The notes: generated by a model from the letters alone, not told the origin. Counted from the stretch's first letter, positions 50,164 to 64,000 are shown. The stretch: 64,000 nucleotides of DNA from Candidatus Gastranaerophilales bacterium (GCA_944324235.1 CALUVN010000001.1:331-64330); one strand, 5' to 3'. Translations and numbers: made by a program.

Positions 50164-51390
50164 TTAAAAGCGGTTTGTAAAGATTAAAGAGGTGTTGATT
50201 CCTCCGAATGCAAAGTTATTTGACATAACATAATTTGTGTCGATTTCTCTGCCTTCGTGCATAATATAATCAAGCGGTGCGCAAGTTTCGTCCACATTGT
50301 TTAAATTCAAAGTCGGGTGAAACCATTTTTTGTTCATCATTTCAATTGTTAAAATAGCTTCAATCGCCCCGCATGCGCCGAGGGTATGTCCTGTATAGCT
50401 TTTAAGCGAACTTATAGGTACTGCGCGTTTAAAAACATCATAAGTCGCATTGCTTTCGGTCATATCGCCCTGAATTGTACCTGTGCCGTGTGCATTGATG
50501 TAACCTATTTTATCCGGAGAAAGTTTTGCATTTTCCAGAGCAAGCTCCATAACTTTAGCAACAGTCGGCTGATTCGGGGTTGTGATATGATTTCCGTCAG
50601 TATTTGTGCCGAATCCTATTATTTCCGCGATAATATTTGCCCCGCGTTTTTTAGCGTGTTCGTATTCTTCAAGGATTAAAGTGCCTGCGCCTTCACCTAT
50701 TACCAATCCGTCGCGTTCCGCGTCAAACGGGGAAGGTGTGGTTTCCGGAGCGGAATTTTTCTGGCTTGTTGCATAAAGCGTATCAAATATTGCAATCTGT
50801 GTCGGGTGAAGTTCATCAGAGCCGCCTGCTATCATTACATCCGCATAACCGTTTTGAATTGCTTCAAAAGCGCATCCTACTCCCATTGAGCCTGATGTAC
50901 ACGCTGTGGAGGTTGTAATAAGACGTCCTGTTGTTTTAAAATACATTGAAATATTCACTGGCGCAGTGTGTGCCATCATTTTCACATAAGAGCCGGAGGT
51001 CAGGCCTTTTACGGATTTTTCCACCTGCATGGAATAAAAATCTATCAGAGCTTCCATTGTACCTGAGGATGAACCGTAACTGACGCCTGTTCTTCCGTTT
51101 GTGATAACGGAATCATTTAAAAGCCCTGCCTGTTCAAGCGCTTTTTCGGTACTGGCAACGCTCATAACCGATACTCTTCCCATTGTTCGCAGAACTTTAC
51201 GGTTATAGTGGGCAGGAGTTTGAAAATTATCCACAGGTGCTGCAAGTTTTGTATTCAAACGTTCATACTGTTCAAGGTTTTCCATATATTTGACAGTATT
51301 TTTGTAAGTATGCAGTCTTTCAAACGCTGTTTCAGCGTCAAATCCGAGTGAACTTACAAGCGACATTCCTGTTACTACAACACGTCTCAC
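50164..51390 (-). CDS. Beta-ketoacyl-ACP synthase (FabB/F-like; ApeR-like position)
   Basis: C-H-H triad in TSTACTSGSMG, NAHGTGT and YTGHTLGACG. It overlaps the KR gene by 4 nt. Confidence 0.9.
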   Translation of the reverse strand: MRRVVVTGMSLVSSLGFDAETAFERLHTYKNTVKYMENLEQYERLNTKLAAPVDNFQTPAHYNRKVLRTMGRVSVMSVASTEKALEQAGLLNDSVITNGRTGVSYGSSSGTMEALIDFYSMQVEKSVKGLTSGSYVKMMAHTAPVNISMYFKTTGRLITTSTACTSGSMGVGCAFEAIQNGYADVMIAGGSDELHPTQIAIFDTLYATSQKNSAPETTPSPFDAERDGLVIGEGAGTLILEEYEHAKKRGANIIAEIIGFGTNTDGNHITTPNQPTVAKVMELALENAKLSPDKIGYINAHGTGTIQGDMTESNATYDVFKRAVPISSLKSYTGHTLGACGAIEAILTIEMMNKKWFHPTLNLNNVDETCAPLDYIMHEGREIDTNYVMSNNFAFGGINTSLIFTNRF

Positions 51391-52109
51391 AGATACATTC
51401 CTCCGTTTACCGAGATTACCTGTCCCGTAATATATGACGCATCTTCACTCATAAGATAATTAATAAGGCTTGCGACTTCTTTCGGTTTGCCGGCACGTTT
51501 CATCGGAATCATTTTTTTCATTTCATCTAAAGGCAAGTCTTTTGTCATATCAGATTCTATAACCCCCGGAGCAACGCAGTTGACTGTAATTCCGCGTTTT
51601 GCGAGTTCAAGGCTGAGTGCTTTGGTTGCCCCTATAATTCCGGCTTTTGAAGCGCTATAGTTTACCTGTCCGCGGTTTCCGCATAATCCTGAGATTGAAG
51701 AAAGGGTTACAATGCGGCCTTTAATTCTTTTTTCTATCATCGGCATCACAAGAGGTCTGAGAACGTTATAAAATCCGCCGAGATTTGTATTCAAAACGTC
51801 GTCCCACTCGGAGTCTTCCATTGCAGGGAAAACGTTATCACGTGCAATTCCCGCATTAACCACGATGCCGTAGTACATACCGTTTTCTGTAATATCTTTC
51901 AACAGCACGCGGCTGCATTCTTCCCGATTTGTAACATCAAATTTTAAAACACGGGCCTGTCTGCCGGCGGCTTCTATTTCTTTTTTGACTTCATCAGGGG
52001 AAGTACGATTATAGTGAAGAACTATATCATATCCGTTTTTTGCAAGATATAAGGCTGTTTCTCTTCCTATTCCGCGTCCGGAACCTGTTATTAAAATCTG
52101 TTTTTCCAT
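51387..52109 (-). CDS. 3-oxoacyl-ACP reductase, SDR (FabG/ApeQ-like)
   Basis: TGSGRGIGRE cofactor loop, NAG, and the S...YSASK catalytic motif. Confidence 0.9.
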   Translation of the reverse strand: MEKQILITGSGRGIGRETALYLAKNGYDIVLHYNRTSPDEVKKEIEAAGRQARVLKFDVTNREECSRVLLKDITENGMYYGIVVNAGIARDNVFPAMEDSEWDDVLNTNLGGFYNVLRPLVMPMIEKRIKGRIVTLSSISGLCGNRGQVNYSASKAGIIGATKALSLELAKRGITVNCVAPGVIESDMTKDLPLDEMKKMIPMKRAGKPKEVASLINYLMSEDASYITGQVISVNGGMYL

Positions 52110-52550
52110 CTATATTCCTTCAAAATTTACGTCATCTGCCGGCATGTAGGCATTTACGATTGCGTGTGCGCACTCTTCTTCCCCATTATAAATAAAACAC
52201 TCAAAGGAGACAAGGTCGGTATCACCGTAGACTTCTTTTGCCTTTACCGTGTAGGTTTTTCCTTCTTCAAAGCATTTGAGCGTGTTTTTGTAAGAGCGTG
52301 TGCCGAGTAAGAAACCGACTTTAGGCGTGTGTTCGTTGTTTTTGAAATAAGAATAGCAGCCGATTGTCTGTGCCATAAATTCCAGCCCTACAAGCGGGTT
52401 TACACCGTCTTTTTCGAAAAATATTTTGTCTTTTGTAATTGTGACAGAGCAGGTGACCGAATGTTCGGATAAATTTACGTCGATGATGTCGTCAATCAGT
52501 ATCATCGGGTGGTTGTGCGGCAGAACTTTTTCGAGATTATATTTTTTCAT
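52110..52550 (-). CDS. Hot-dog-fold 3-hydroxyacyl-ACP dehydratase (ApeP-like)
   Basis: 146 aa. LPHNHPMILIDDI is the N-terminal motif typical of APE/FabZ-like dehydratases. Confidence 0.75.
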   Translation of the reverse strand: MKKYNLEKVLPHNHPMILIDDIIDVNLSEHSVTCSVTITKDKIFFEKDGVNPLVGLEFMAQTIGCYSYFKNNEHTPKVGFLLGTRSYKNTLKCFEEGKTYTVKAKEVYGDTDLVSFECFIYNGEEECAHAIVNAYMPADDVNFEGI

Positions 52551-53641
52551 CTTTTGTTTCCCATAATTATAACGGCGTTTGTGCCTCCAAAACCGAAGGA
52601 ATTAGACATACAGATATCCAGTTTTTTTGCGTGTGAATTTTTGTCTGCAAGTTTTATTTTTGGCAGTTTGTCATCGTAAATTCCGTCATAAATATGCGGA
52701 AGAAGTCTATTTTCGGGATTTTTAGAGAGCATTTCACAGCAGAGCGCGATTTCAACACTGGCAGCAGCACCGAGACAGTGTCCGGTGAGCGGTTTTGTGG
52801 AGCTTGCATAGACTTTGTCTCCGAAAATTTTGTGGATGGCGTTTGCTTCCATAATATCATTGCTGATTGTGCCTGTTCCGTGCATGTTTATGTAATCAAT
52901 ATCTTCAGGGGATAAACCTGACTGTTTGAGTGCTATTTTAATAGCCTGTGCAGCTTGTTCGCCTTCAGGGTCAGGTGTTGCCGCGTGGTATGCATCGGAA
53001 GTTTCTCCGAGTCCTAATATTTCAATCCCTTTTTCTGCATTTTTTTCCAGAATAAACAGCGCCCCGCCTTCTCCGATATTCATACCTTTCCGGTTTTTGC
53101 TCATCGGGTTTGTGAGGTCGTCAGTCAAAACTTCAAGCGCTCTGAATCCGTATAACGGTAAATCTGCCATTGGTTCTGTTCCGCCTGTGATTACTGCATC
53201 ACAAATCCCGCTGTTCAGAAGCTTTATGGCGGTTGAAAATACTTTTACTCCCGATGTGCAGGCAGTTGAAACCGATGCGTAAAAATTTGTAAAACCGAAA
53301 TATTTTGCCAGAAACTCTGCAGGATTGCCGAACTGGGCGTGTTTTAATTCTCCGTCTTTTTCAAATTCCTGTATTCCGGAGTTTGTAGTACCGATTACTA
53401 TCCCTATTCGGTCTTTGCCGTATTTTTTAATTAAATCTTCAATCTCTTTGCGCATATTGTTTACGCAGTGAAGAAGAATTTTGTTACAGCGTAAATTATA
53501 GTCAGGGTTTTCTATTGCAGGTAATTCCGAATCAATTTTATGCGGACGTATTACTCCGTTTGACGCGTTTTCGAAAATCTCCCCGATATCATCTCCCAGA
53601 CAGCATATTGCAGATGTTTTTGTAATAAAAATTTTTTCCAT
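52547..53641 (-). CDS. Beta-ketoacyl-ACP synthase (ApeO-like)
   Basis: 364 aa with SVSTACTSG, NMHGTGT and LTGHCLGAA. It is the first gene of the minus-strand operon. Confidence 0.85.
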   Translation of the reverse strand: MEKIFITKTSAICCLGDDIGEIFENASNGVIRPHKIDSELPAIENPDYNLRCNKILLHCVNNMRKEIEDLIKKYGKDRIGIVIGTTNSGIQEFEKDGELKHAQFGNPAEFLAKYFGFTNFYASVSTACTSGVKVFSTAIKLLNSGICDAVITGGTEPMADLPLYGFRALEVLTDDLTNPMSKNRKGMNIGEGGALFILEKNAEKGIEILGLGETSDAYHAATPDPEGEQAAQAIKIALKQSGLSPEDIDYINMHGTGTISNDIMEANAIHKIFGDKVYASSTKPLTGHCLGAAASVEIALCCEMLSKNPENRLLPHIYDGIYDDKLPKIKLADKNSHAKKLDICMSNSFGFGGTNAVIIMGNKR

Positions 53642-53660
53642 AACTTTATTTTTACCAACG

Positions 53661-53676
53661 ACTATATTAATATAGT
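53661..53676. promoter_or_regulatory. 16-bp perfect palindrome ACTATATTAATATAGT in the 38-bp divergent gap of the cluster
   Basis: Read directly; the sequence equals its own reverse complement. It contains TATAGT/TATATT -10-like hexamers on both strands. Confidence 0.35.
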
Positions 53677-53679
53677 AGC

Positions 53680-54285
53680 ATGAACCAATTTAATCAAACA
53701 TTTTATATATACAAAACTTCATACATTAAAGATGAAGTGCCTGATGTTGGTTTTTTACCGATGCTTATGCGCCGTAAGCTCAGCAGTATCGGTAAAACCG
53801 CGCTTTATACAATGAATGAAGTTTATGAAGGCAACGATATAAAATTGGTTTACGCATCTAATTACGGCGAACTTGAGCGGGTTAAAAAGCTTCTCGACCA
53901 GAAAAATACGGAAGGCGAGATGTCTCCGACGGGATTTAGTTTTTCCGTGCATAACTCATCGGTGGGACTTTTTTCGCTGTTGAATAAGATTAATTCTCCA
54001 TACAGCTCGATTTCTGCCGGAGAAAACAGTCTGTCTGCGGGGATTCTCGAAAGTGTAATTACAAACGACGATGTCCTTTTCTGTTTTGCCGAATCAGTCG
54101 GGGGGCTCAGAGGTGCAGCGTGTACGTTTGGAAGAAAACCGCGCGTCGGGGCAATAAAAGCTGAACTGCTGCCTAATGACGGAAAAACTTCTGCTGCGGG
54201 CTTTGATGATTTTGTGAATTTCTTGAACGGTGCGAAAGATGAATATGTAAGCGATTTTTACGTATTGAGAAGGTACAATGGTTAG
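53680..54285 (+). CDS. KS-N-terminal-like protein lacking the active-site Cys (chain-length-factor-like, ApeC-like)
   Basis: 201 aa with LPMLMRRKLSSIGKTAL and SPTGFSFSVHNSSVGLFS. There is no C-H-H triad. Confidence 0.6.
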   Translation: MNQFNQTFYIYKTSYIKDEVPDVGFLPMLMRRKLSSIGKTALYTMNEVYEGNDIKLVYASNYGELERVKKLLDQKNTEGEMSPTGFSFSVHNSSVGLFSLLNKINSPYSSISAGENSLSAGILESVITNDDVLFCFAESVGGLRGAACTFGRKPRVGAIKAELLPNDGKTSAAGFDDFVNFLNGAKDEYVSDFYVLRRYNG

Positions 54286-55012
54286 ATTTTTCAGGGCAAT
54301 TGCCGTTTTGATATGTGTAATAATTTTTGGAGCAGGCTCGTGTTTATTGAGTTTTGTGCTTTTCCCGCTTGGCATTTTGTTTGTACCTGCCGGACGCCGC
54401 CGTAAATATTTTACTGCGGTTGTGCATTATTCGTGGAAACTGTTTACCGTAATAATTCAAAAAGCAGGCTGCGTCAGAGTAACTTTTACGGGTGACTTTG
54501 AGAATATCAAGGGAAAAATAATTGCGGCATCTCACCCGAGTTTTATTGATATAGTGCTTTTGATAGGGAAAATCCCGAATTCCGTGTGTATCGCAAAGCA
54601 GGGATTATTGAAAAATCCGATTATGCGTAATATAGTGAAAAATGCCTATATAGTTAACGGCGGCGATACCGAGCAGTTTATTAAAGATGCAAAAAGCTTT
54701 CTGGATGACGGTTTTAACGTTGTGATATTCCCGACAGGCACTCGTACCAAAAAAGGTGAAGATATAAAAATTCATAAAGGCGCGGCTCAGCTTGCCATAG
54801 CCTCAAATATTGATATTATACCCGTAAAAATTGACTGCGATTACGATTTTCTGCAAAAAAATAAATCTATGCTTGATGCAGGCGAACATATAGTGAATTA
54901 TACCCTTGAAATTCAGCCTGTAATCCGCGTTAAAGATTTCGAAAACCTGAATCTTACCGATATCAAACTTCGTAACCATATTTCCGAACGTATTAAAATT
55001 TCAATAAATTGA
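54278..55012 (+). CDS. PlsC-type lysophospholipid/glycerolipid acyltransferase (ApeD-like)
   Basis: HX4D motif ASHPSFID, VIFPTGTR, and an N-terminal TM. Confidence 0.8.
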   Translation: MVRFFRAIAVLICVIIFGAGSCLLSFVLFPLGILFVPAGRRRKYFTAVVHYSWKLFTVIIQKAGCVRVTFTGDFENIKGKIIAASHPSFIDIVLLIGKIPNSVCIAKQGLLKNPIMRNIVKNAYIVNGGDTEQFIKDAKSFLDDGFNVVIFPTGTRTKKGEDIKIHKGAAQLAIASNIDIIPVKIDCDYDFLQKNKSMLDAGEHIVNYTLEIQPVIRVKDFENLNLTDIKLRNHISERIKISIN

Positions 55013-55070
55013 CTTTAACGTTTTATCAGGTTAAAATTTTATATAGACACAGGAATTAGGGATTAGAATT

Positions 55071-55328
55071 ATGAGTTTAGAAGAAGATATTAAAAAATTG
55101 ATTATTAAATCACTTGATCTTGAAGATATAAGTGTTGACGATATAGAAGATGAGGCTCCGCTTTTTAATGAAGGTTTGGGACTTGATTCAATTGATGCCC
55201 TTGAACTCGGTATGGCGCTGAAAAAACAATATAATCTTACGTTAAGTTCCGACAAAGATGATAACAAAGAGTATTTCTATTCGGTAAAAACGCTGGCAGA
55301 TTACATAAGGGGGCAGGGCATTGAATAA
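55071..55328 (+). CDS. Acyl carrier protein 1
   Basis: 85 aa with the phosphopantetheine site GLDSIDALEL. Confidence 0.85.
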   Translation: MSLEEDIKKLIIKSLDLEDISVDDIEDEAPLFNEGLGLDSIDALELGMALKKQYNLTLSSDKDDNKEYFYSVKTLADYIRGQGIE

Positions 55329-55575
55329 ACAATTTACACGCGATGAAATCAGCAAAAAATTAACTGAAATTTTGACTGATGATTTTGAAATTGCACCGGA
55401 AAAAATTAAACCTGATGCAAGCCTTTTTGATGATTTGGAACTTGACAGCATAGACGCGGTGGATCTGGCAGTTAAATTACAATATTTTACCGATAAAAAA
55501 ATTGCACCGGAAAATTTCAAACAAATTAAAACCGTTGATGATGTTGTAAAAGCTATAGAAGATTTGCTGAAATGA
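55321..55575 (+). CDS. Acyl carrier protein 2 (TTG start, 8-nt overlap with ACP 1)
   Basis: 84 aa with ELDSIDAVDL. Confidence 0.8.
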   Translation: MNKQFTRDEISKKLTEILTDDFEIAPEKIKPDASLFDDLELDSIDAVDLAVKLQYFTDKKIAPENFKQIKTVDDVVKAIEDLLK

Positions 55576-55973
55576 AGTTGAGATTTTTATTACCGATATC
55601 TTTTACTTTACTGGTAATTTTTCTATTCTGGTATACCAGAATTTTTGCGTTTAAATTTTATCCGGTCATAATGGATTTTCTGTTTTTTGCGATGTTCTTT
55701 TCATCTCTTTTTATGAAAGAAACAGTAATCCAAAAAATTGCAAGAATGATGGAGGGCGGAGAGTTAAATGATTTTGTAAAAAAATATACAAGAAATTTGA
55801 CATATATCTGGTGTGTATTTTTGTTTGCAAATTTTTTAATCGCACTGTCAACAGTGTTTATGGATGATAAAATCTGGATGCTCTATAACGGATGTATTTC
55901 TTATCTTGCAGTCGGCACATTTTTTATAATCGAATACATAATCCGCATTATAATGAAGAAAAAATACGAATGA
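55572..55973 (+). CDS. Small integral membrane protein (ApeG-like position)
   Basis: 133 aa with 4 hydrophobic segments. It overlaps both neighbours by 4 nt. Confidence 0.6.
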   Translation: MKLRFLLPISFTLLVIFLFWYTRIFAFKFYPVIMDFLFFAMFFSSLFMKETVIQKIARMMEGGELNDFVKKYTRNLTYIWCVFLFANFLIALSTVFMDDKIWMLYNGCISYLAVGTFFIIEYIIRIIMKKKYE

Positions 55974-57559
55974 ATTTTATAGATTTATTTACAAAAACCG
56001 AATACGATAATAAACCGTTTTTGAGAAAAGACGGCCACGATTTTACGCTTGCGGAAATCAAAAAATTTGTTGCATTTCAGATAGAAAATTTTTCGAAATC
56101 CGATAAACAAAATGTTGTACTTTTTGCTGATTCAAATTTTGATTTTATGATTAATTTTTTTGCCGCGGTTTTTGCGAAAAAGGACATTTTTTTACTCACT
56201 GATAAAAACAGATTAAATCAGCTTGATGTTGAATATATTTTGCCAGAAAAATTTTCAAAATTTGATACGGAAAATTATAAATTCCCGCTTATAAATCCGA
56301 AAGAAATTTTTATAACTTTATTCACATCAGGCTCAACTTTTTCTCCGAAAAAAATTAAAAAAACATTGTATAATGTGTTTGCAGAAAGTGATGATATCTA
56401 TGAACAATTTTACAGTGATTATCCGCCTGAAACACTTGTTGTTGCGACAACAAATCCGGCACACATGTTCAGTTTGACTTTTTATTTTATACTGCCTTTT
56501 AATAACGGCTATCTAATTGATACTGAAAGAGTAGTTTTTCCTGAAGAATTGGATTTGAAAAAAAATTATATTCTGATTTCAACACCGGCATTTCTTGATA
56601 GAATTATCGACTATAAATTAAAAAGTTTTCCTGAAATAATTTTTACTGCAGGCTCAAAATTGAAACAAAAAACTTTTGAAATTTTTGAAAAAAATTCAAA
56701 AGTTGTTGACATTTACGGCAGCACGGAAACTTCAACAATTGCATTCAGAACAAACTCGCAAGATGAAAAATTGACTCTTATAAATAATGTAAAATTGGAT
56801 ACAACGGCAGATGTTATTACGGCAAAGTCAGAATATTTTTTGCCTGATTATCTTACTATTGCAGATGCGTATGAAATGGTAAATGAAAAACAATTTATTT
56901 TGAAAAATCGTACCGACAGAATTGTGAAAATTTTGGAAAAAAGAATCTCTTTAAACGAAATCGAAAATATCCTGAACAGACATGAATTTGTACAGAATAA
57001 TTACTGTTTAAAATATGAGGATAACCTTGCGGCTGCAGTTGTTTTGAATGAAAAAGGCAAAGAATTTTTTCTGAAAAACGGAAAGTTTAAAACTGTTAAT
57101 GAAATTAAAAATTTCTGTAAAAATTTTTCAGAAATTCCGCCGAAAAAATGGAAAATTTTATACGAAATTCCTGTAACGGAATGCGGCAAAATTAATAAAG
57201 AAAAAATTGAAAAAATATTCGAATTAAACTTATCTTATCCGTTTATAATTTCAAAAAATGTTAATCAAAATTCAGCGGAATTAAAATTGATTTTTACAAA
57301 AAAATCTAATTTTTTTGACGGACATTTTGAAAATTTTCCTATTGTTCCGGGGGTAGTTCAATTATTTTTTGCAGATTATTTTGCAGAAGATATTTTTGCT
57401 CAAAAACTTCCGCTTGAAGATATCAAAAAAATTAAATTTTCGAACATTATTTTGCCGGACGTTCCTGTCAATCTGGTATTAAAAAATAACGAAAAAAATA
57501 TAGAATTTACCTACCTGTCGGATGACAAAATATTTTCATCAGGTATATTCGTAAAATGA
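55970..57559 (+). CDS. AMP-dependent synthetase/ligase fused to a C-terminal hot-dog dehydratase (ApeH-ApeI-like fusion)
   Basis: Adenylation motifs are LFTSGSTFSPKKI, DIYGSTETS, NRTDRIVKILEKRISLNEIE and IPVTECGKINK. The C-terminal FFDGHFENFPIVPGVV is the FabA/Z signature. The start ATG 55970 overlaps the previous stop (ATGA). Confidence 0.8.
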   Translation: MNFIDLFTKTEYDNKPFLRKDGHDFTLAEIKKFVAFQIENFSKSDKQNVVLFADSNFDFMINFFAAVFAKKDIFLLTDKNRLNQLDVEYILPEKFSKFDTENYKFPLINPKEIFITLFTSGSTFSPKKIKKTLYNVFAESDDIYEQFYSDYPPETLVVATTNPAHMFSLTFYFILPFNNGYLIDTERVVFPEELDLKKNYILISTPAFLDRIIDYKLKSFPEIIFTAGSKLKQKTFEIFEKNSKVVDIYGSTETSTIAFRTNSQDEKLTLINNVKLDTTADVITAKSEYFLPDYLTIADAYEMVNEKQFILKNRTDRIVKILEKRISLNEIENILNRHEFVQNNYCLKYEDNLAAAVVLNEKGKEFFLKNGKFKTVNEIKNFCKNFSEIPPKKWKILYEIPVTECGKINKEKIEKIFELNLSYPFIISKNVNQNSAELKLIFTKKSNFFDGHFENFPIVPGVVQLFFADYFAEDIFAQKLPLEDIKKIKFSNIILPDVPVNLVLKNNEKNIEFTYLSDDKIFSSGIFVK

Positions 57560-57589
57560 TGAAAAGCAATTAGGGAAAAGAGGTTTATA

Positions 57590-58006
57590 ATGGTAAAATT
57601 TGAATCGTCATTAATTATAGAAATTCCGTTTTATGACTTAGATCCGATGAATGTAGTGTGGCACGGAAATTATATTAAATATCTCGAAGAAGCAAGATGC
57701 GAGATGTTTAAAAATTTAAAATATACATATTGTGATATGCGTGATGACGGAGTGGCATATCCTATTGCAAAAATGGATTTAAAATTCATAAAATCCTGCC
57801 ATTTCGGACAGAAAATAAAAGTTACAACCTTGCTTGAAGATATAGAACCGTGTATAATTATAAAGTATCTTATTACCGATGCTGACACGGGAGAGAGTAT
57901 TTTGAAAGCAAAGAGTATGCAGATAGGTGTTAATGCTTTGTCCGGCGAAAGTATTTATCAGGCTCCGGAAAGGCTGAAGAAAATTTGTGAGGAGTGTAGA
58001 GTTTAG
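57590..58006 (+). CDS. 4HBT/YbgC-type acyl thioesterase (ApeK-like)
   Basis: IPFYDLDPMNVVWHGNYIKYLEEAR. 138 aa. Confidence 0.8.
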   Translation: MVKFESSLIIEIPFYDLDPMNVVWHGNYIKYLEEARCEMFKNLKYTYCDMRDDGVAYPIAKMDLKFIKSCHFGQKIKVTTLLEDIEPCIIIKYLITDADTGESILKAKSMQIGVNALSGESIYQAPERLKKICEECRV

Positions 58007-58009
58007 ATT

Positions 58010-58519
58010 ATGAAAAAGTTTTTATTAATTTTGCTGGTAAGTTTTATATGTGTGAATTCAGTAATGGCTTTTGGAAGCAGAAAAAATGCAAGAGAAATTG
58101 CAGAACAAATTCCTGAGCTGAAAAATATTTCTTGTAAATTTACGCAGAAAAAAATTCAGGAGGATTTGGTGTTAAACTCCGGAGGAAATTTCAAATTTAT
58201 ATCGGATAAAGGCGTTGTTTTTGAGACACTTTATCCTATAAAAATGATTACAACATACAATTCTCCGCGTAACAAACACATCAATGATATAATACTTGCT
58301 GTTTCCAAAAAAGATTACACTTATCTTGATAAAAATTTTGATTTGGATTTCACAAAACTTGACGAAAGATGGCAGCTTGTTTTAAATCCGAAAAAAGATG
58401 TAATCAAACAACATTTGCATAGTGTGGTTATTGACGGGAATTCAGGAATTGACAGGATTTATATTGACACTGTAAACAGCGGACAAACCGAAATTTTATT
58501 TGATTGTGAGAAAGAGTAA
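58010..58519 (+). CDS. LolA-like lipoprotein/lipid carrier (ApeL-like)
   Basis: A signal peptide, then ISCKFTQKK...GGNFKF, the LolA-like beginning. 169 aa. Confidence 0.6.
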   Translation: MKKFLLILLVSFICVNSVMAFGSRKNAREIAEQIPELKNISCKFTQKKIQEDLVLNSGGNFKFISDKGVVFETLYPIKMITTYNSPRNKHINDIILAVSKKDYTYLDKNFDLDFTKLDERWQLVLNPKKDVIKQHLHSVVIDGNSGIDRIYIDTVNSGQTEILFDCEKE

Positions 58520-60651
58520 TGAAAAAGTTTTTAAGAATTTTATTTGTCGGAATTTTTCTTATTCTGGCAATAATGTCACTTAGTCACCCGATAAAAACAG
58601 AGACAAATATTTTACGTACTGTAGTCTCGGAAAAGAATACGGATCTTCTGGATTTGAGTAATCTTTATTCAGCCAAAATTAACATTTTGGTAGAAGGCGA
58701 AGAGCCTGAAGAAGTAAGTGAAACTGCTGATAAATTTAATGAATCTGCCCTTGAAAATAATTTGAAATCAATATCGGTTGACGGTAATAAAATTCTTGAA
58801 TTATATAAAGATGCAAGAGCAGGATTGCTTTCTGCAAATACAGCAAAACTTCTTGAAAAAAATGATTACGAAAAAGTAAAAGAAAATACAATTGAAATGA
58901 TTTATAACCCGCTGGGTTTTTCATTATTAAAACCTGAGGAAGATCCGTTCTTACTCTTTACTGATTATATTGCAAATCTTGGAGACAATATCAATCCTGA
59001 CGGAATTATTAATTATGAAGATAAATATTACAGAATTTTGAATTATGAATTTGATAAAGATATTTCACTTTCTCCTTCTTTATTAAATAAACGTGTGAAA
59101 AAAATTATCGGAATTCAAAAACAGCTTTCAGTAAACGGAGTTAATGTATATCTTACAGGGACGCCTGTTCATTCCTATTATGCAAGCAGCCGTTCCATGA
59201 TGGAAATTAATATTATATGTGTATTGTCCGCGATTTTTGTAATATTTTTATGTTTAACTTATTTCAAAAATATAAGTGTGTTGATACCTGTGGCATCGAG
59301 TTTATTACTCGGGGGGACTGCAGGATTTTTTGTTACATCATTGATGTTTCCTTCAATTCACGTTTTGACTTTTGTTTTTTCAACAACATTGATAGGAATT
59401 TCAGTTGATTATTCGCTGCATTTTTTCGTGTCTAAAACAAAAGAAAAAACAGGCGATGAAGTGTTGAAAGAAATTTTTAAAAGTTTGTCGGTTAGTTTAT
59501 TAACAACTATTTCCGCGTTTCTTGTTTTATTCTTTTCGCATATGGAATTGCTTAAACAAATTGCAGCGTTTACAGTTACGGGACTTATAACAGTTTATTT
59601 GTTTGTTGTGTTATTTTATCCTGTTATTTGTAAAAAAATTGATGTAAATAATTCAAGTGAAAATCCGCGTTGGAATTTTATTTTTTCTCCTGCAACAAGA
59701 AAAATAATAATGATAATTTTAGGAATTATTACAATATCAGGCTTATTTTTCACAACAACTAATGATGATATCAGAAGTATGTATAAACCTTCCAAAAAAT
59801 TAATGCAGGCAGAAACATTATTTGCAAATGTTGTGGGTATTAATCCGAAAACTTCTTTTGTGGTTGTAGAAGGGAAAAATTTGCAGGATGTTCTGGAAAA
59901 AGAGGAGCACATTACTGAAATTATAGGGGCAACAAAATATCAGGCTATAAGTAAATTTATTCCTTCAAAAAGTAAACAGGCAAAAAACAGAGCATTAATG
60001 CAAAAGTTATATGATACGGAAATCTCTCCGTACACATCGGCATTAAAAGCTAGTTCGAAAGTTCCTGCCGGAGACTATCTTGTATATGATAAAGAGTCTT
60101 TCCCGTTTCTTGAAGGGTTCTTTTTAGATGAAAATAAGACTCTTATGATTTTGTATGATTTTGATAAACCTGAACTGCTTTCAGACATAGACGGAGTTGA
60201 ATATTACAATATACAACAGGATATTTCCAATCTGGTAAAAGAATGCAGAGTAAATTGTGCAAAACTTCTTATTCCGGTATTTATTTTATTATTTGGATTG
60301 CTTGCTGTTATTTACAAACCGAAAAATGCGTTAAAAATTATTTTGCCGCCGCTTTGTGCGTGTATTTTTACGATAGGACTTCTGGGACTTTTGCATATCA
60401 GCTTGAACCTTTTCCACATAATTGCAATGTTCTTAATAATAGGTTTCAGTCTGGATTATTCCGTTTTCAGATTTAACGGTAAAAAACTCGTGAGCGATGC
60501 AGTATTTATGTCCTGTATGACCAGCGTATTTTCGTTTATGCTGCTGGCATTTACAGGTTTTAAACTGATAAGTTCTCTCGGGTTTGTTTTATCTGTCGGA
60601 CTTTTAAGTTCATATATTTTGAGTTTACTTTTGATATCAAAAGAAGAATAA
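58519..60651 (+). CDS. MMPL/RND-superfamily exporter (ApeM-like)
   Basis: 710 aa. Two 5-6 TM bundles are each preceded by a soluble loop. Contains GISVDYSLHF and GFSLDYSVF. Confidence 0.8.
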   Translation: MKKFLRILFVGIFLILAIMSLSHPIKTETNILRTVVSEKNTDLLDLSNLYSAKINILVEGEEPEEVSETADKFNESALENNLKSISVDGNKILELYKDARAGLLSANTAKLLEKNDYEKVKENTIEMIYNPLGFSLLKPEEDPFLLFTDYIANLGDNINPDGIINYEDKYYRILNYEFDKDISLSPSLLNKRVKKIIGIQKQLSVNGVNVYLTGTPVHSYYASSRSMMEINIICVLSAIFVIFLCLTYFKNISVLIPVASSLLLGGTAGFFVTSLMFPSIHVLTFVFSTTLIGISVDYSLHFFVSKTKEKTGDEVLKEIFKSLSVSLLTTISAFLVLFFSHMELLKQIAAFTVTGLITVYLFVVLFYPVICKKIDVNNSSENPRWNFIFSPATRKIIMIILGIITISGLFFTTTNDDIRSMYKPSKKLMQAETLFANVVGINPKTSFVVVEGKNLQDVLEKEEHITEIIGATKYQAISKFIPSKSKQAKNRALMQKLYDTEISPYTSALKASSKVPAGDYLVYDKESFPFLEGFFLDENKTLMILYDFDKPELLSDIDGVEYYNIQQDISNLVKECRVNCAKLLIPVFILLFGLLAVIYKPKNALKIILPPLCACIFTIGLLGLLHISLNLFHIIAMFLIIGFSLDYSVFRFNGKKLVSDAVFMSCMTSVFSFMLLAFTGFKLISSLGFVLSVGLLSSYILSLLLISKEE

Positions 60652-61127
60652 CTTTTTATGGCGAGCATAAAGTTATTAATTTTAAAAACGGCGCATGATT
60701 TTTCAGGTGTCTGCAGCTTAATTCCGGCTTCAAGTTCTGTCCAGAATCTGTAAAAATATTCTGCATCGGGATTTTTTATTCCTAGTTTGTAATACTTAAA
60801 TATTTCATCAAATTTTCTGTTTTTCATAAATTCGATATCTGCGCCTACCGGTGCAGTATCAAAGGCTGCAAGAATAATATTTTTGGAATGCGAGATACTG
60901 AAATTTATATCAGAATATTTGAATCGGGGTTTTTTATTGACGATTTCAATTTCAGGATTTTGAATATTAAATCTTGTTTGTGCAACATATTTTACCAGAA
61001 ATCTTCCAAGACAAAATTGAATCTTTTGTTTTTCTGATTTAAAAGATTTTTTTTCAAGAAAAATATCCAGCGATTTCAAATCGAGGTTTGTCAAAAAGGT
61101 GTCAGAATTAATATAAAAAATTTCCAT
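60456..61127 (-). CDS. Sfp-type 4'-phosphopantetheinyl transferase
   Basis: FSISHS, GADIEF and FWTELEAGIK, which matches the (W/F)xxKE(A/S)xxK motif. The last 64 or so codons are antisense to the MMPL 3' end. Confidence 0.7.
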   Translation of the reverse strand: MEIFYINSDTFLTNLDLKSLDIFLEKKSFKSEKQKIQFCLGRFLVKYVAQTRFNIQNPEIEIVNKKPRFKYSDINFSISHSKNIILAAFDTAPVGADIEFMKNRKFDEIFKYYKLGIKNPDAEYFYRFWTELEAGIKLQTPEKSCAVFKINNFMLAIKSYSSFDIKSKLKIYELKSPTDKTNPRELISLKPVNASSINENTLVIQDINTASLTSFLPLNLKTE

Positions 61128-61144
61128 GCTATAATTTTAATATC

Positions 61145-62224
61145 ATGACAGGAGAAAATGCAACAAATTTAAGATATAGAAGAGAGCGTAAAAGAGGTTC
61201 ATCAAGTGTGGAAGCTCTGACAAAGGCACAGGAAATAGCATTTGCACCGTTTACATTTCAGGCGGCAGGTGTTCTTCTGGAGCTTGGAATTTTAAAATAT
61301 ATAGACGAAACACCTGCTTCAATCGGGGATATAGTGAGAGATTGCAGAGTTTCGGAATATACGGTGTCAACTTTGTTTGATGTTGCCGAATGCGCAGGAA
61401 TTGTTGCATGCGAGGACGGAAAGTACACCGCAACAAAAGTAGGGCAGGCCTTTTTGTACGATGAGATGACAAGGGTTAATTTTAATTTTGTAAAAGATGT
61501 TTGTTATCTCGGTGCATCAGAACTTTTGAATTCTTTTCAGACAGCTGAACCTTGCGGACTTCATAAATTTTTAGGGAATTATCCGACGATATATCCCGCA
61601 CTTACAAAACTTCCGCCTCAGATGCAAAAAAGCTGGTATGAATTTGACCATTATTATTCGGATGGTTGTTTTGAAGAAGTTTTGAAAATCATATTCAAGG
61701 ACAATCCCGAAGAGATTTTTGATATAGGCGGAAATACAGGCAAGTTTGAAAAAGCCTGCCTTGCTTATGACGAAAAATGTAAGGTAACAATGCTTGATTT
61801 GCCTGAAAATATTGACAGAGCAAAGCAAAATATCAACTCTTCCAGATGTAATTTTTGCGGGATTAATGTAGTTGATAAAAGTTATACATACCCGAAATTC
61901 TGCGGGGCTGTTTTTATGAGCCAGTTTCTGGATTGTTTTTCAAAAGAACAAATTCTGTATATTCTTTCAAATATTTGCGAAAACATGGCTGATGATACAA
62001 AAATTTATATACTGGAACCGTTTATTGATAATCAAATATTCCGCGGTGCGGCATATTCATTGACGCATATATCTCTGTATTTTACCTGTATGGCAAACGG
62101 CAAAAGCAAAATGTATAAAAAATCCGATATGGAAAAACTTATTGAAGATTCAGGACTTAAAGTTTCCTCCGAATACAGAATAAGTTCTCATGATTATACT
62201 CTTCTGGAGTGTGTTAAGGCATGA
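61145..62224 (+). CDS. Class I SAM-dependent (O-)methyltransferase with N-terminal winged-helix dimerisation domain (ApeB-like)
   Basis: SAM motif I IFDIGGNTGKF and acidic loop VTMLDLPE. Confidence 0.75.
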   Translation: MTGENATNLRYRRERKRGSSSVEALTKAQEIAFAPFTFQAAGVLLELGILKYIDETPASIGDIVRDCRVSEYTVSTLFDVAECAGIVACEDGKYTATKVGQAFLYDEMTRVNFNFVKDVCYLGASELLNSFQTAEPCGLHKFLGNYPTIYPALTKLPPQMQKSWYEFDHYYSDGCFEEVLKIIFKDNPEEIFDIGGNTGKFEKACLAYDEKCKVTMLDLPENIDRAKQNINSSRCNFCGINVVDKSYTYPKFCGAVFMSQFLDCFSKEQILYILSNICENMADDTKIYILEPFIDNQIFRGAAYSLTHISLYFTCMANGKSKMYKKSDMEKLIEDSGLKVSSEYRISSHDYTLLECVKA

Positions 62225-63132
62225 GATGGTATCAGGTAAAAGAGCAGGCGGCAGGCATAAAAAGACTGATGCTGATGTATCATATTTATTGCATTGCAGG
62301 TAAAAAAGCCGTTAAATTTATTACGTTTTTTGTAACATTTTTTGCTTTTATTTTTGCTCCGCAAATTAGATATTATTCTAAAAAATATTTGCATCAAGTC
62401 GGGGTAAAACCGACTTTAAAAAATCAATTTCTGCATTTTTTATCCTATGCAAATATTCTGATTGATAATATGGAAACATTTATAAACAAATTCAATCCGG
62501 CAAATATTACCTTTGCGGATGAAGATACAAAAAATAATTTCTTTAATATTGTAAGAGAAAAAAAAGGCGGATTCTTAATAAGTTCACATCTTGGCAATAT
62601 TCATGTTCTGCGTTCTTTTTTGAGCGCGGAATACAATAAATATAATGTGCATGTGAATATATTTTTGAGCGAAACTCAATGTAAAATATTTAATGAATTT
62701 ATAAGACGTATAATGCTGCCTCAAAATGATGTTACAACATATCCGGTTGAACAAATTACCATAGGTACACCTATTGAAATTAAAGAAAAAATAGATCGGG
62801 GAGAACTTGTTTTTATTGCAGGCGACCGTGTTTCAGAAACAGGTTCTACGGTGTTCGGTACAGAATTTCTCGGCCGCAGGGTAGAATTTCCTCTTGGAAC
62901 ATTTACTTTTGCAAAACTTATGGATTGCCCTGTTTTTTTTATAGTGCTGGTTAAAACTGATGGCGATAAATACACAGTTTATCTTGAGAAAGCTCCTGAA
63001 AATCAAAATGAGATGCAATCGGCCTATGTTAAATTTTTAGAAAAACTTACACGCCGTTATCCGCTGCAATTTTATCATTTTTATGATATATTTGTAGACG
63101 GTAAAACAGGAGATGAAGATGAACTGCATTAA
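62221..63132 (+). CDS. LpxL/HtrB-like lipid acyltransferase family protein
   Basis: An N-terminal TM, then GGFLISSHLGNIHV (cf. the H.GNxE motif). 4-nt overlap with the methyltransferase gene. Confidence 0.5.
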   Translation: MRWYQVKEQAAGIKRLMLMYHIYCIAGKKAVKFITFFVTFFAFIFAPQIRYYSKKYLHQVGVKPTLKNQFLHFLSYANILIDNMETFINKFNPANITFADEDTKNNFFNIVREKKGGFLISSHLGNIHVLRSFLSAEYNKYNVHVNIFLSETQCKIFNEFIRRIMLPQNDVTTYPVEQITIGTPIEIKEKIDRGELVFIAGDRVSETGSTVFGTEFLGRRVEFPLGTFTFAKLMDCPVFFIVLVKTDGDKYTVYLEKAPENQNEMQSAYVKFLEKLTRRYPLQFYHFYDIFVDGKTGDEDELH

Positions 63133-64000
63133 TTTGGTTATTGATGAGGAGAAATGTATCCGCTGCGGACTCTGCGTAAAGGACTGCACCGCAGGAGTGC
63201 TTGAACAGGCAGAAAATGAAGTGCCTAAAATCGCTGAAAACGGCGAAAAAAGATGTATTAAATGTCAGCATTGTCTGGCAGTTTGTCCGACAGGCGCGCT
63301 TTCAATTTTCGGGAAAAATCCTCAGGATTCCGATTCAATAAGAGAAGTCAACAGCGATGATGTTTTAAATCTAATCAAAAGCCGCAGAAGTTACAGACAT
63401 TACAAACAGGAAAATCTTGATAAAGAAACTATGGATAAGCTGAAAAATATGCTTAACTGGGTTCCGACAGGATGTAACAACCACCGTCTGCATTTTGCAT
63501 TTATTGATGATATTGCGGTAATGAATGATTTTAGAGGATATGTTACAAGTACTCTCATAAAAATTCTCACCAAAACTCCGGTTAAACCTATTATGGATAA
63601 ATTCGGCAAATATAAAAATTCATTTTTGAACGGTGAAGACGTAATTTTTAGAGGATCGCCTCACCTTATTGTTGCCTGCACTCCTATTGATGCGCCGTGC
63701 GCGGATATTGACCCTATAATAGCCTTGAGTTATTTTGAACTTTATGCACAAAGTTTGAATGTAGCAACTGTATGGTGCGGGTTTGCTGCAATATGTTTTA
63801 AAATGTTTCCGGAATTATGCAGTCAGCTTAAAATTCCTGACGGCTACAAAGCGTCTTATGTTATGCTTTTCGGGCCGCGTGATATTAAATATGCAAGAAC
63901 AACACAGCCTGAGCCGTATACGATTTCTACGGCAGAAAAGGGCGGCAGAAATAATATGAATATAGTCGATAAAGTTAAAAGATATTTTTGGAATTTCATC
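63119..64000 (+). CDS. 2x[4Fe-4S] ferredoxin domain fused to a nitroreductase-family domain (3' end beyond window)
   Basis: Not in the track because it has no in-window stop. My translation is MNCINLVIDEEKCIRCGLCVKDCTAG...RCIKCQHCLAVCPTGAL...IKSRRSYRHYKQE...PHLIVAC... The start overlaps the preceding gene by 14 nt. Confidence 0.75.
   Translation, partial: MNCINLVIDEEKCIRCGLCVKDCTAGVLEQAENEVPKIAENGEKRCIKCQHCLAVCPTGALSIFGKNPQDSDSIREVNSDDVLNLIKSRRSYRHYKQENLDKETMDKLKNMLNWVPTGCNNHRLHFAFIDDIAVMNDFRGYVTSTLIKILTKTPVKPIMDKFGKYKNSFLNGEDVIFRGSPHLIVACTPIDAPCADIDPIIALSYFELYAQSLNVATVWCGFAAICFKMFPELCSQLKIPDGYKASYVMLFGPRDIKYARTTQPEPYTISTAEKGGRNNMNIVDKVKRYFWNFI

Follow-up and report, generated by a model that had tools for sequence, protein, structure and literature searches.

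What biosynthetic system is encoded by the block of genes at positions 50164–63132 of a 64,000-nucleotide stretch of DNA from Candidatus Gastranaerophilales bacterium (GCA_944324235.1 CALUVN010000001.1:331-64330; the whole stretch is referred to below as the window), and how far does its gene set depart from that of the characterized aryl polyene (APE) pathways? The Gastranaerophilales (Melainabacteria/Vampirovibrionia) are a non-photosynthetic gut sister group of the cyanobacteria. The window covers bases 331–64330 of a 73.8-kb contig in a genome of 1.94 Mb (80 contigs, 99.8% complete), and the original prediction, made from its sequence alone, had described the locus as an APE-type cluster of non-canonical composition with apeC–M and apeO–R blocks. 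Our analysis identifies this locus as an ordinary member of the known APE family with a reduced anchoring and export module. We consider it very probable that it is a functional orthologue of the APE lipid clusters of the E. coli/Xenorhabdus/Acinetobacter type that entered the gut Gastranaerophilales a single time, in an ancestor, and was then lost repeatedly. APE clusters are known as one of the most common cluster types in metagenomes of the gut and rumen. No report of aryl polyenes in Melainabacteria or Gastranaerophilales was found in the searched literature: two metagenome papers naming both terms concern different organisms, and a 2026 Gastranaerophilales preprint does not mention such clusters.

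The locus contains 16 intact open reading frames (ORFs), and neighboring genes mostly overlap by 1–8 bases, which therefore form two tightly packed divergent operons. All ORFs of the original prediction are present at the positions that it gave, Pfam and NCBIfam scans confirm the domains named there, and the minus-strand block for a ketosynthase (KS), a dehydratase, a ketoreductase and a second KS, which runs from 53641 down to 50164, lies opposite to the plus-strand block. The reference was the APE cluster of E. coli CFT073, which has been studied experimentally; its proteins were compared with those of the window by BLAST and were also run against NCBIfam as a control. One-to-one best matches were obtained for 15 CFT073 Ape proteins (23–56% identity) and, in addition, for the C-terminal half of ApeJ. 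The best NCBIfam models NF006587, NF006618, TIGR01831, NF006617 and NF003757 are common to the window and CFT073 proteins, as are a sub-threshold match to the FlxJ family and a weak match of the adenylase, ApeH, to a 4-coumarate-ligase model, its best in both organisms.

ApeR is 56% identical to E. coli ApeR versus 35% to FabF, and it scores 645 bits with NF006587 (cut-off 470), which is also the best model of E. coli ApeR. Its best PDB matches are 7F27 (A. baumannii ApeR, 487 bits) and 4EWG (P. phymatum, 480 bits), compared with 285 bits for FabF. ApeR keeps Cys164 and both catalytic histidines together with Tyr135, Phe202 and Phe118, the residues that stack the aryl group (PMC8358021). The second KS, ApeO, aligns with E. 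coli ApeO along its full length at 35% identity and retains the Cys/His/His triad (best model NF006618, 357 bits, under the cut-off of 407). In ApeC, its Cys-less chain-length factor (CLF) partner (40% identity; PF13723, 104 bits), the active-site position reads SISAG (SLSAG in E. coli), with the cysteine replaced. The tandem acyl carrier proteins (ACPs) ApeE (53% identity; NF006617, 93.5 bits, cut-off 70) and ApeF (56% identity; NF003757, 110 bits, cut-off 65) retain their serine motifs GLGLDS and LELDS, respectively, and ApeQ is 56% identical to its E. coli counterpart and matches TIGR01831 (FabG2) at 353 bits (cut-off 338.85). The dehydratase subunit ApeP (33% identity; PF22817 ApeP-like, 64.7 bits, cut-off 27) retains the LPH...PM motif, and the ApeI domain (28% identity; PF22818, 29.0 bits, cut-off 28.5) the dehydratase motif FDGHF...PxVPGV.

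The ApeH domain (25% identity, E 4e-34) retains the ANL motifs, namely the P-loop TSGSTxxPK, YGSTET and the C-terminal GK. ApeD (31%) keeps the HX4D and FPxGTR motifs, and ApeK (33%) the catalytic Asp in FYDLD, so that catalytic residues are intact in the KSs, ACPs, dehydratases, acyltransferase, adenylase and thioesterase. ApeG, with 133 versus 193 amino acids (aa), is 35% identical to residues 88–190 of E. coli ApeG (E 2.6e-19) and has no match in Pfam and NCBIfam scans. ApeM is 23% identical to E. coli ApeM across 660 aa (E 4e-28). ApeL is also 23% identical to its counterpart by BLAST; however, a profile of nine ApeL orthologues aligns with E. coli ApeL by hhalign at a probability of 97% (E 1.2e-10) and matches PDB 8T5J, annotated as "outer membrane lipocarrier LolA family protein" (E 7.8e-13). 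ApeB is 42% identical to E. coli ApeB. The published APE core set consists of apeO/R, apeE/F, apeC, apeI/P, apeQ and apeM (10.1101/2020.12.19.423268), and the locus has its KS-CLF pair, ApeR, tandem ACPs, dedicated ketoreductase and the ApeP and ApeI dehydratase subunits, together with ApeM, ApeL and ApeG for export.

In a maximum-likelihood KS tree, both window KSs group with E. coli ApeR and ApeO in the clades of these proteins (SH-aLRT, the Shimodaira-Hasegawa-like approximate likelihood ratio test, gives 100% for the ApeO clade), apart from FabF/FabB, and the clustering with ordinary fatty acid synthase or AasS enzymes that would have contradicted the original prediction was not observed. 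The FabF encoded elsewhere in the genome is 50% identical to that of E. coli, joins it in the tree and belongs to a separate housekeeping fabH-fabD-fabG-acpP-fabF operon on contig C9, which together with the tree rules out the window genes as the primary fab genes. The best matches, the NCBIfam models, the KS tree and the ApeR structures thus all uphold the assignment to the APE family. A cluster of the flexirubin or xanthomonadin type has in its favor that the methyltransferase matches the FlxJ-family model (378 bits) and the ketoreductase matches FlxB (283 bits), along with a weak LolA2_flexi match. However, E. coli ApeB and ApeQ match the same Flx models at similar sub-threshold scores (the FlxJ cut-off of 560 is reached neither by the window protein nor by E. 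coli ApeB, with 470 bits, and the FlxB score lies below its cut-off of 340), and the window KSs are nearest to the E. coli and Acinetobacter ApeR/ApeO. For flexirubin, the genome has neither a tyrosine ammonia-lyase (TAL; PF00221) nor a second FabH-like gene that could be DarB, the sole one being the housekeeping gene on C9; for xanthomonadin, there is no XanB2/FkbO-type chorismatase (PF21168) in the genome and no halogenase in the cluster. We therefore rejected both types, which we regard as extremely improbable.

The same gene set in the same order was found in at least 8 genera of the order, and thus it is not a chance assembly. The adenylase gene is 75–76% identical in two Candidatus Gastranaerophilales metagenome-assembled genomes of the same genus. 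The architecture, that is, divergent apeO–R, the ApeH-ApeI fusion, and terminal apeB and ApeJ-type acyltransferase genes, recurs in the relatives examined, which represent three families and have 36–93% protein identity. Among 121 genomes sampled from the order, 61 (16 of 39 genera) carry ApeP-like genes, with presence and absence mixed within genera; such genes were also detected in 36 of 201 genomes of a class sample and 71 of 301 of a phylum sample, all in the same family, and in none of 14 control genomes. This distribution marks the cluster as an accessory trait that is confined to one lineage and has been lost repeatedly. The ApeR sequences of the Gastranaerophilales form a single clade in the KS tree, as do their ApeO sequences, which fits one acquisition, and the cluster was probably acquired horizontally. 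A search of protein representatives with ApeR returned mostly giant modular polyketide synthases, next to some stand-alone proteins.

On the basis of the roles described for Ape proteins (10.1101/2020.12.19.423268, PMC8253772, PMC8358021, PMC8041823, PMC12624758), the following pathway can be proposed, in which the core chemistry is expected to be ordinary. The ApeH domain would adenylate an aromatic acid, either 4-hydroxybenzoate or a p-coumarate-like compound, and load it onto ApeE. ApeO:ApeC, aided by ApeR, would elongate the chain with ApeF-bound malonyl units presumably delivered by the housekeeping FabD; after each round, the beta-keto group would be reduced by ApeQ and dehydrated by the pair of ApeP and the ApeI domain, yielding a conjugated polyene. 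ApeB would methylate the phenol ring, while ApeK may assist release. ApeD and the ApeJ-type acyltransferase are predicted to put acyl chains on a membrane lipid, and the product would travel to the outer membrane via ApeG, ApeL and ApeM. The Sfp-type 4'-phosphopantetheinyl transferase (PPTase) presumably activates ApeE, ApeF and probably AcpP as well.

Several observations weigh against this interpretation, the first of which concern the starter unit. The genome, although 99.8% complete, encodes no known route to an aromatic starter. Chorismate synthase is present; aromatic ammonia-lyase (PF00221), UbiC, an Rv2949c-type lyase and an FkbO/XanB2-type chorismatase are all absent genome-wide, which extends the earlier remark that the window lacks an ammonia-lyase or chorismate lyase gene, and UbiC was not found in any of 101 sampled genomes of the host family. 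Moreover, ApeH is just 25% identical to the E. coli enzyme, and its predicted substrate follows from homology; the A. baumannii ApeH takes both 4-hydroxybenzoate and p-coumarate (PMC12624758). These observations speak for the same machinery acting on a starter that is not a phenol or not an aryl compound at all (4-aminobenzoate or an aliphatic acid, for instance), so that the product would be a polyene lipid but not a strict aryl polyene. We regard this variant as unlikely, since the conserved ApeB-type ring methyltransferase, the conserved ApeE-type starter ACP and the aryl-stacking residues retained in ApeR favor a phenolic starter, as does the weak best match that the adenylase shares with E. 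coli ApeH, a 4-coumarate-ligase model. In addition, phenolic acids are plentiful in the gut and their scavenging is conceivable. Given that no endogenous starter route was detected, uptake of gut phenolic acids would be the simplest source.

A second group of contrary observations concerns the accessory genes. The protein encoded by the last gene of the cluster had been described as an LpxL-like acyltransferase, and an ApeJ-like gene had been listed as missing. We found that it is 26% identical to residues 250–549 of the 558-aa E. coli ApeJ (E 2.5e-29), and thus the acyltransferase half of ApeJ is present, whereas the GT2 half is indeed absent, with merely weak generic GT2 matches elsewhere in the genome. 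Orthologues of this ApeJ-type acyltransferase carry PF03279; in all genera compared, the conserved part of the cluster ends with its gene, no conserved glycosyltransferase follows in other genera, and a homologue search with it returned matches almost all from the same lineage. ApeN (DUF3261), noted earlier as lacking, was found nowhere in the genome by tblastn and PF11659, and a tblastn search of the genome for ApeA likewise gave no match. Hence the ApeJ GT2 half, the LolB-like ApeN and ApeA are all missing. In Xenorhabdus, ApeJ is a glycosyl/acyltransferase that adds first N-acetylgalactosamine (GalNAc) and then the APE acyl group (10.1101/2020.12.19.423268). Because the GT2 domain is missing here, the final lipid cannot be the GalNAc-phosphoglycerol APE lipid of Xenorhabdus.

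These absences would also agree with a decaying remnant that, having no glycosyltransferase domain, ApeN or starter pathway, makes no finished product, as would the patchy distribution with many losses within genera and the partial clusters found at this locus in four relatives (L025, L029, L032 and L033). However, none of the 16 ORFs is disrupted and their catalytic motifs are retained, the gene order of the reduced set is the same in three families at the identities given above, which is unexpected for pseudogenes, and E. coli strains with apeA and apeJ deletions remain pigmented (PMC8253772); we consider decay very unlikely. A functional APE lipid cluster with a reduced accessory set is thus our preferred interpretation. 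A more specific version of it, possible but held with considerable doubt, is that Gastranaerophilales make a sugar-free aryl-polyene lipid, its head scavenged from dietary or host phenolic acids, by means of a stand-alone ApeJ-type acyltransferase and with no GalNAc bridge. If the starter is scavenged, pigment production in these gut bacteria would depend on diet.

Few biosynthetic clusters are as common in Gram-negative bacteria as those for APEs, for which links to biofilm behavior and to protection against reactive oxygen species have been described. About half of the species sampled from the order carry the cluster described here, and the rest of the sampled phylum lacks it, which points to a host-association trait that is specific to this uncultured lineage and was probably acquired horizontally. 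The reduced set, having no sugar-transferase domain, LolB-like protein or starter pathway, represents a natural minimal version with regard to which genes anchoring and export need, and also allows one to ask whether the aromatic starter can come from the environment.

Table 1. Features of the APE-type locus, with functions as predicted from homology; positions are those of the window.
Feature	Position	Strand	Evidence
apeR-type beta-ketoacyl-ACP synthase, 408 aa	50164..51390	-	BLAST, NF006587, PDB, tree
apeQ-type ketoreductase (FabG2)	51387..52109	-	BLAST, TIGR01831
apeP-type dehydratase subunit, hot-dog	52110..52550	-	PF22817, BLAST
apeO-type ketosynthase, partner of CLF	52547..53641	-	BLAST, tree
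Divergent intergenic region, 38 bp, with TATA-rich palindrome directly 5' of the apeC ATG	53642..53679		
apeC-type chain-length factor, Cys-less KS-like, 201 aa	53680..54285	+	PF13723, BLAST
apeD-type lysophospholipid acyltransferase (PlsC-type)	54278..55012	+	PF01553, BLAST
apeE-type starter ACP	55071..55328	+	BLAST, NF006617
apeF-type extender ACP	55321..55575	+	BLAST, NF003757
apeG-type small membrane protein, 133 aa	55572..55973	+	BLAST
apeH-apeI fusion (predicted aryl-acid adenylating/ACP-loading enzyme and dehydratase subunit), 529 aa	55970..57559	+	PF00501, PF22818, BLAST
apeK-type hot-dog thioesterase	57590..58006	+	BLAST, 4HBT_2, YbgC family
apeL-type LolA-like carrier	58010..58519	+	hhalign profile comparison
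apeM-type MMPL/RND exporter	58519..60651	+	PF03176, HAE3 family, BLAST
Sfp-type PPTase	60456..61127	-	Match to B. subtilis Sfp (1QR0)
apeB-type methyltransferase	61145..62224	+	BLAST, FlxJ-family model
Stand-alone acyltransferase, ApeJ C-terminal half (LpxL family)	62221..63132	+	BLAST
Ferredoxin-nitroreductase fusion gene, runs past window end	63113..64000	+	Fer4, Nitroreductase domains

The PPTase gene between apeM and apeB encodes a protein that matches B. subtilis Sfp at E 8e-7, contains the VGxDIE and W..E...K motifs, and is also matched weakly by the AusB and HetI models. The original prediction considered it dedicated to the cluster, which our analysis does not bear out. The genome has no PF01648 match and no PPTase paralogue, and E. 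coli AcpS used as a tblastn and phmmer query against it gave chance-level matches alone. PPTase matches, usually one full-length, were obtained in 20 of 23 genomes of the order searched, including genomes that have no APE cluster, and in those APE-positive genera that lack a PPTase gene in the cluster an orthologue is located elsewhere in the genome. Since it is the sole detectable PPTase and has orthologues in cluster-less relatives, it is most likely the general PPTase of the organism, and its location in the cluster in some genera would be coincidental. A dependence on a single Sfp-type PPTase is said to be found in cyanobacteria as well.

Over its last ~65 codons, the PPTase gene runs antisense to the 3' end of apeM (60456–60651, a convergent overlap of 196 bp), and an apeM/PPTase overlap of ~140–200 bp was found in every genus in which the two genes are adjacent (six loci). 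Orthologues encoded elsewhere in their genomes align solely to residues 1 to about 160–190 of the window protein, and in these genomes residues 159–223 match apeM in antisense. In this lineage, the C-terminal part of the PPTase thus seems to have been overprinted on the 3' end of apeM.

The adenylase was predicted earlier to carry a dehydratase domain in the same protein, which is confirmed by matches to both PF00501 and PF22818. This arrangement is not novel, since in A. baumannii the ApeI protomer is likewise joined to the ApeH C-terminus (PMC8041823). All 120 homologues among the matches listed are fused, with lengths of 512–572 aa save for one of 489 and one of 661. An alternative start at 55892 was dropped in favor of 55970 because the resulting 529 aa agree with these lengths and with the gene callers.

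A -10-like (TATAAT-like) box lies 5–8 nucleotides 5' of the apeC ATG in all genera compared, with no Shine-Dalgarno sequence, and the apeO-apeC gap narrows to about 20–30 bp in L029 and L033. The position of the box and the narrow gap suggest leaderless or nearly leaderless apeC transcripts and promoters located inside the neighboring coding regions. A consensus promoter scan (58 versus 52.9) and a terminator scan (12 versus 11.3) remained at the shuffle background.

Variants of the locus were observed among the relatives. In the four with partial clusters, it retains just apeR-Q-P-O and apeC-D, sometimes with apeE-F, and the remaining genes have been lost or are located elsewhere. L029 has an apeG fragment on the opposite side of apeR, and L027 has no apeB methyltransferase gene. 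In many relatives (e.g., G065, G035, G045 and G067), the ApeP-like match falls inside an open frame of 505–590 aa, which suggests that ApeO and ApeP share one frame, possibly as a KS-dehydratase fusion.

Downstream of the cluster, a ferredoxin-nitroreductase fusion gene is followed by genes for a TSCPD protein and for two transferases of the Caps_synth (GT32-like) and GT8 types (window 63113–64000 and L004 144–3207); these four genes overlap one another and the last ape gene by 8–23 bases. We evaluated this quartet as core parts or as a substitute for GT2 and rejected it, as its linkage with the cluster is confined to one genus: it adjoins the cluster just in the two same-genus genomes, and unrelated genes occupy this place in other genera. 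Given this genus-specific adjacency, the ferredoxin-nitroreductase gene is probably outside the cluster core.

The ~16-kb segment from apeR to the GT8 gene is inverted in comparison with L021 and L022 relative to the flanking genes for an M48 peptidase and a 219-aa protein; in L021 and L022 this flank abuts apeR, whereas here it abuts the GT8 side, past a repeat region. The latter consists of ~1 kb of non-coding DNA with a GC content of 46% and dispersed repeat units (L004 3207–4264, C1 66506–67563), lies ~2.2 kb past the window end, and sits at the junction where the orientation of the cluster differs between congeners. The repeat units, also present at C1 1–274, gave 275 BLAST matches distributed over the genome; many of these lie at the ends of contigs, and an Rfam scan of this repeat-rich kilobase detected no family.

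A comparison with the known systems places the locus within the APE family. The clusters for flexirubin (Bacteroidota) and xanthomonadin (Xanthomonas) share with it a type II fatty acid synthase-like polyene core, an ApeB/FlxJ-like methyltransferase, and LolA-like and RND export genes, but here there are no TAL, DarA/DarB-type, XanB2-type chorismatase or halogenase genes. The cluster of E. coli CFT073, which according to Cimermancic (2014), as cited in PMC8253772, comprises apeA–apeR, and that of Xenorhabdus doucetiae are much closer. They share with the window orthologues of apeB, apeC–I, apeK, apeL, apeM and apeO–R and the acyltransferase half of apeJ, the same order within the apeC–M and apeO–R blocks, and the same catalytic motifs. 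In these two species, apeO–R are co-directional with the rest of the cluster, whereas here they are divergent, with apeB and the apeJ-type gene placed after apeM, ApeH and ApeI fused, ApeJ devoid of GT2, ApeN and ApeA absent, ApeG and ApeC shorter, an Sfp-type PPTase gene embedded, and a host that lacks UbiC. The inversion of the KS/ketoreductase/dehydratase block, noted earlier as a distinguishing feature, is real; however, an unrelated APE-like cluster also has divergent blocks. Finally, Acinetobacter baumannii, although it belongs to another phylum, shares with the Gastranaerophilales cluster the ApeH-ApeI fusion and the aryl-stacking residues of ApeR, for which it also provides the closest solved structure (7F27) (PMC8041823, PMC8358021, PMC12624758).

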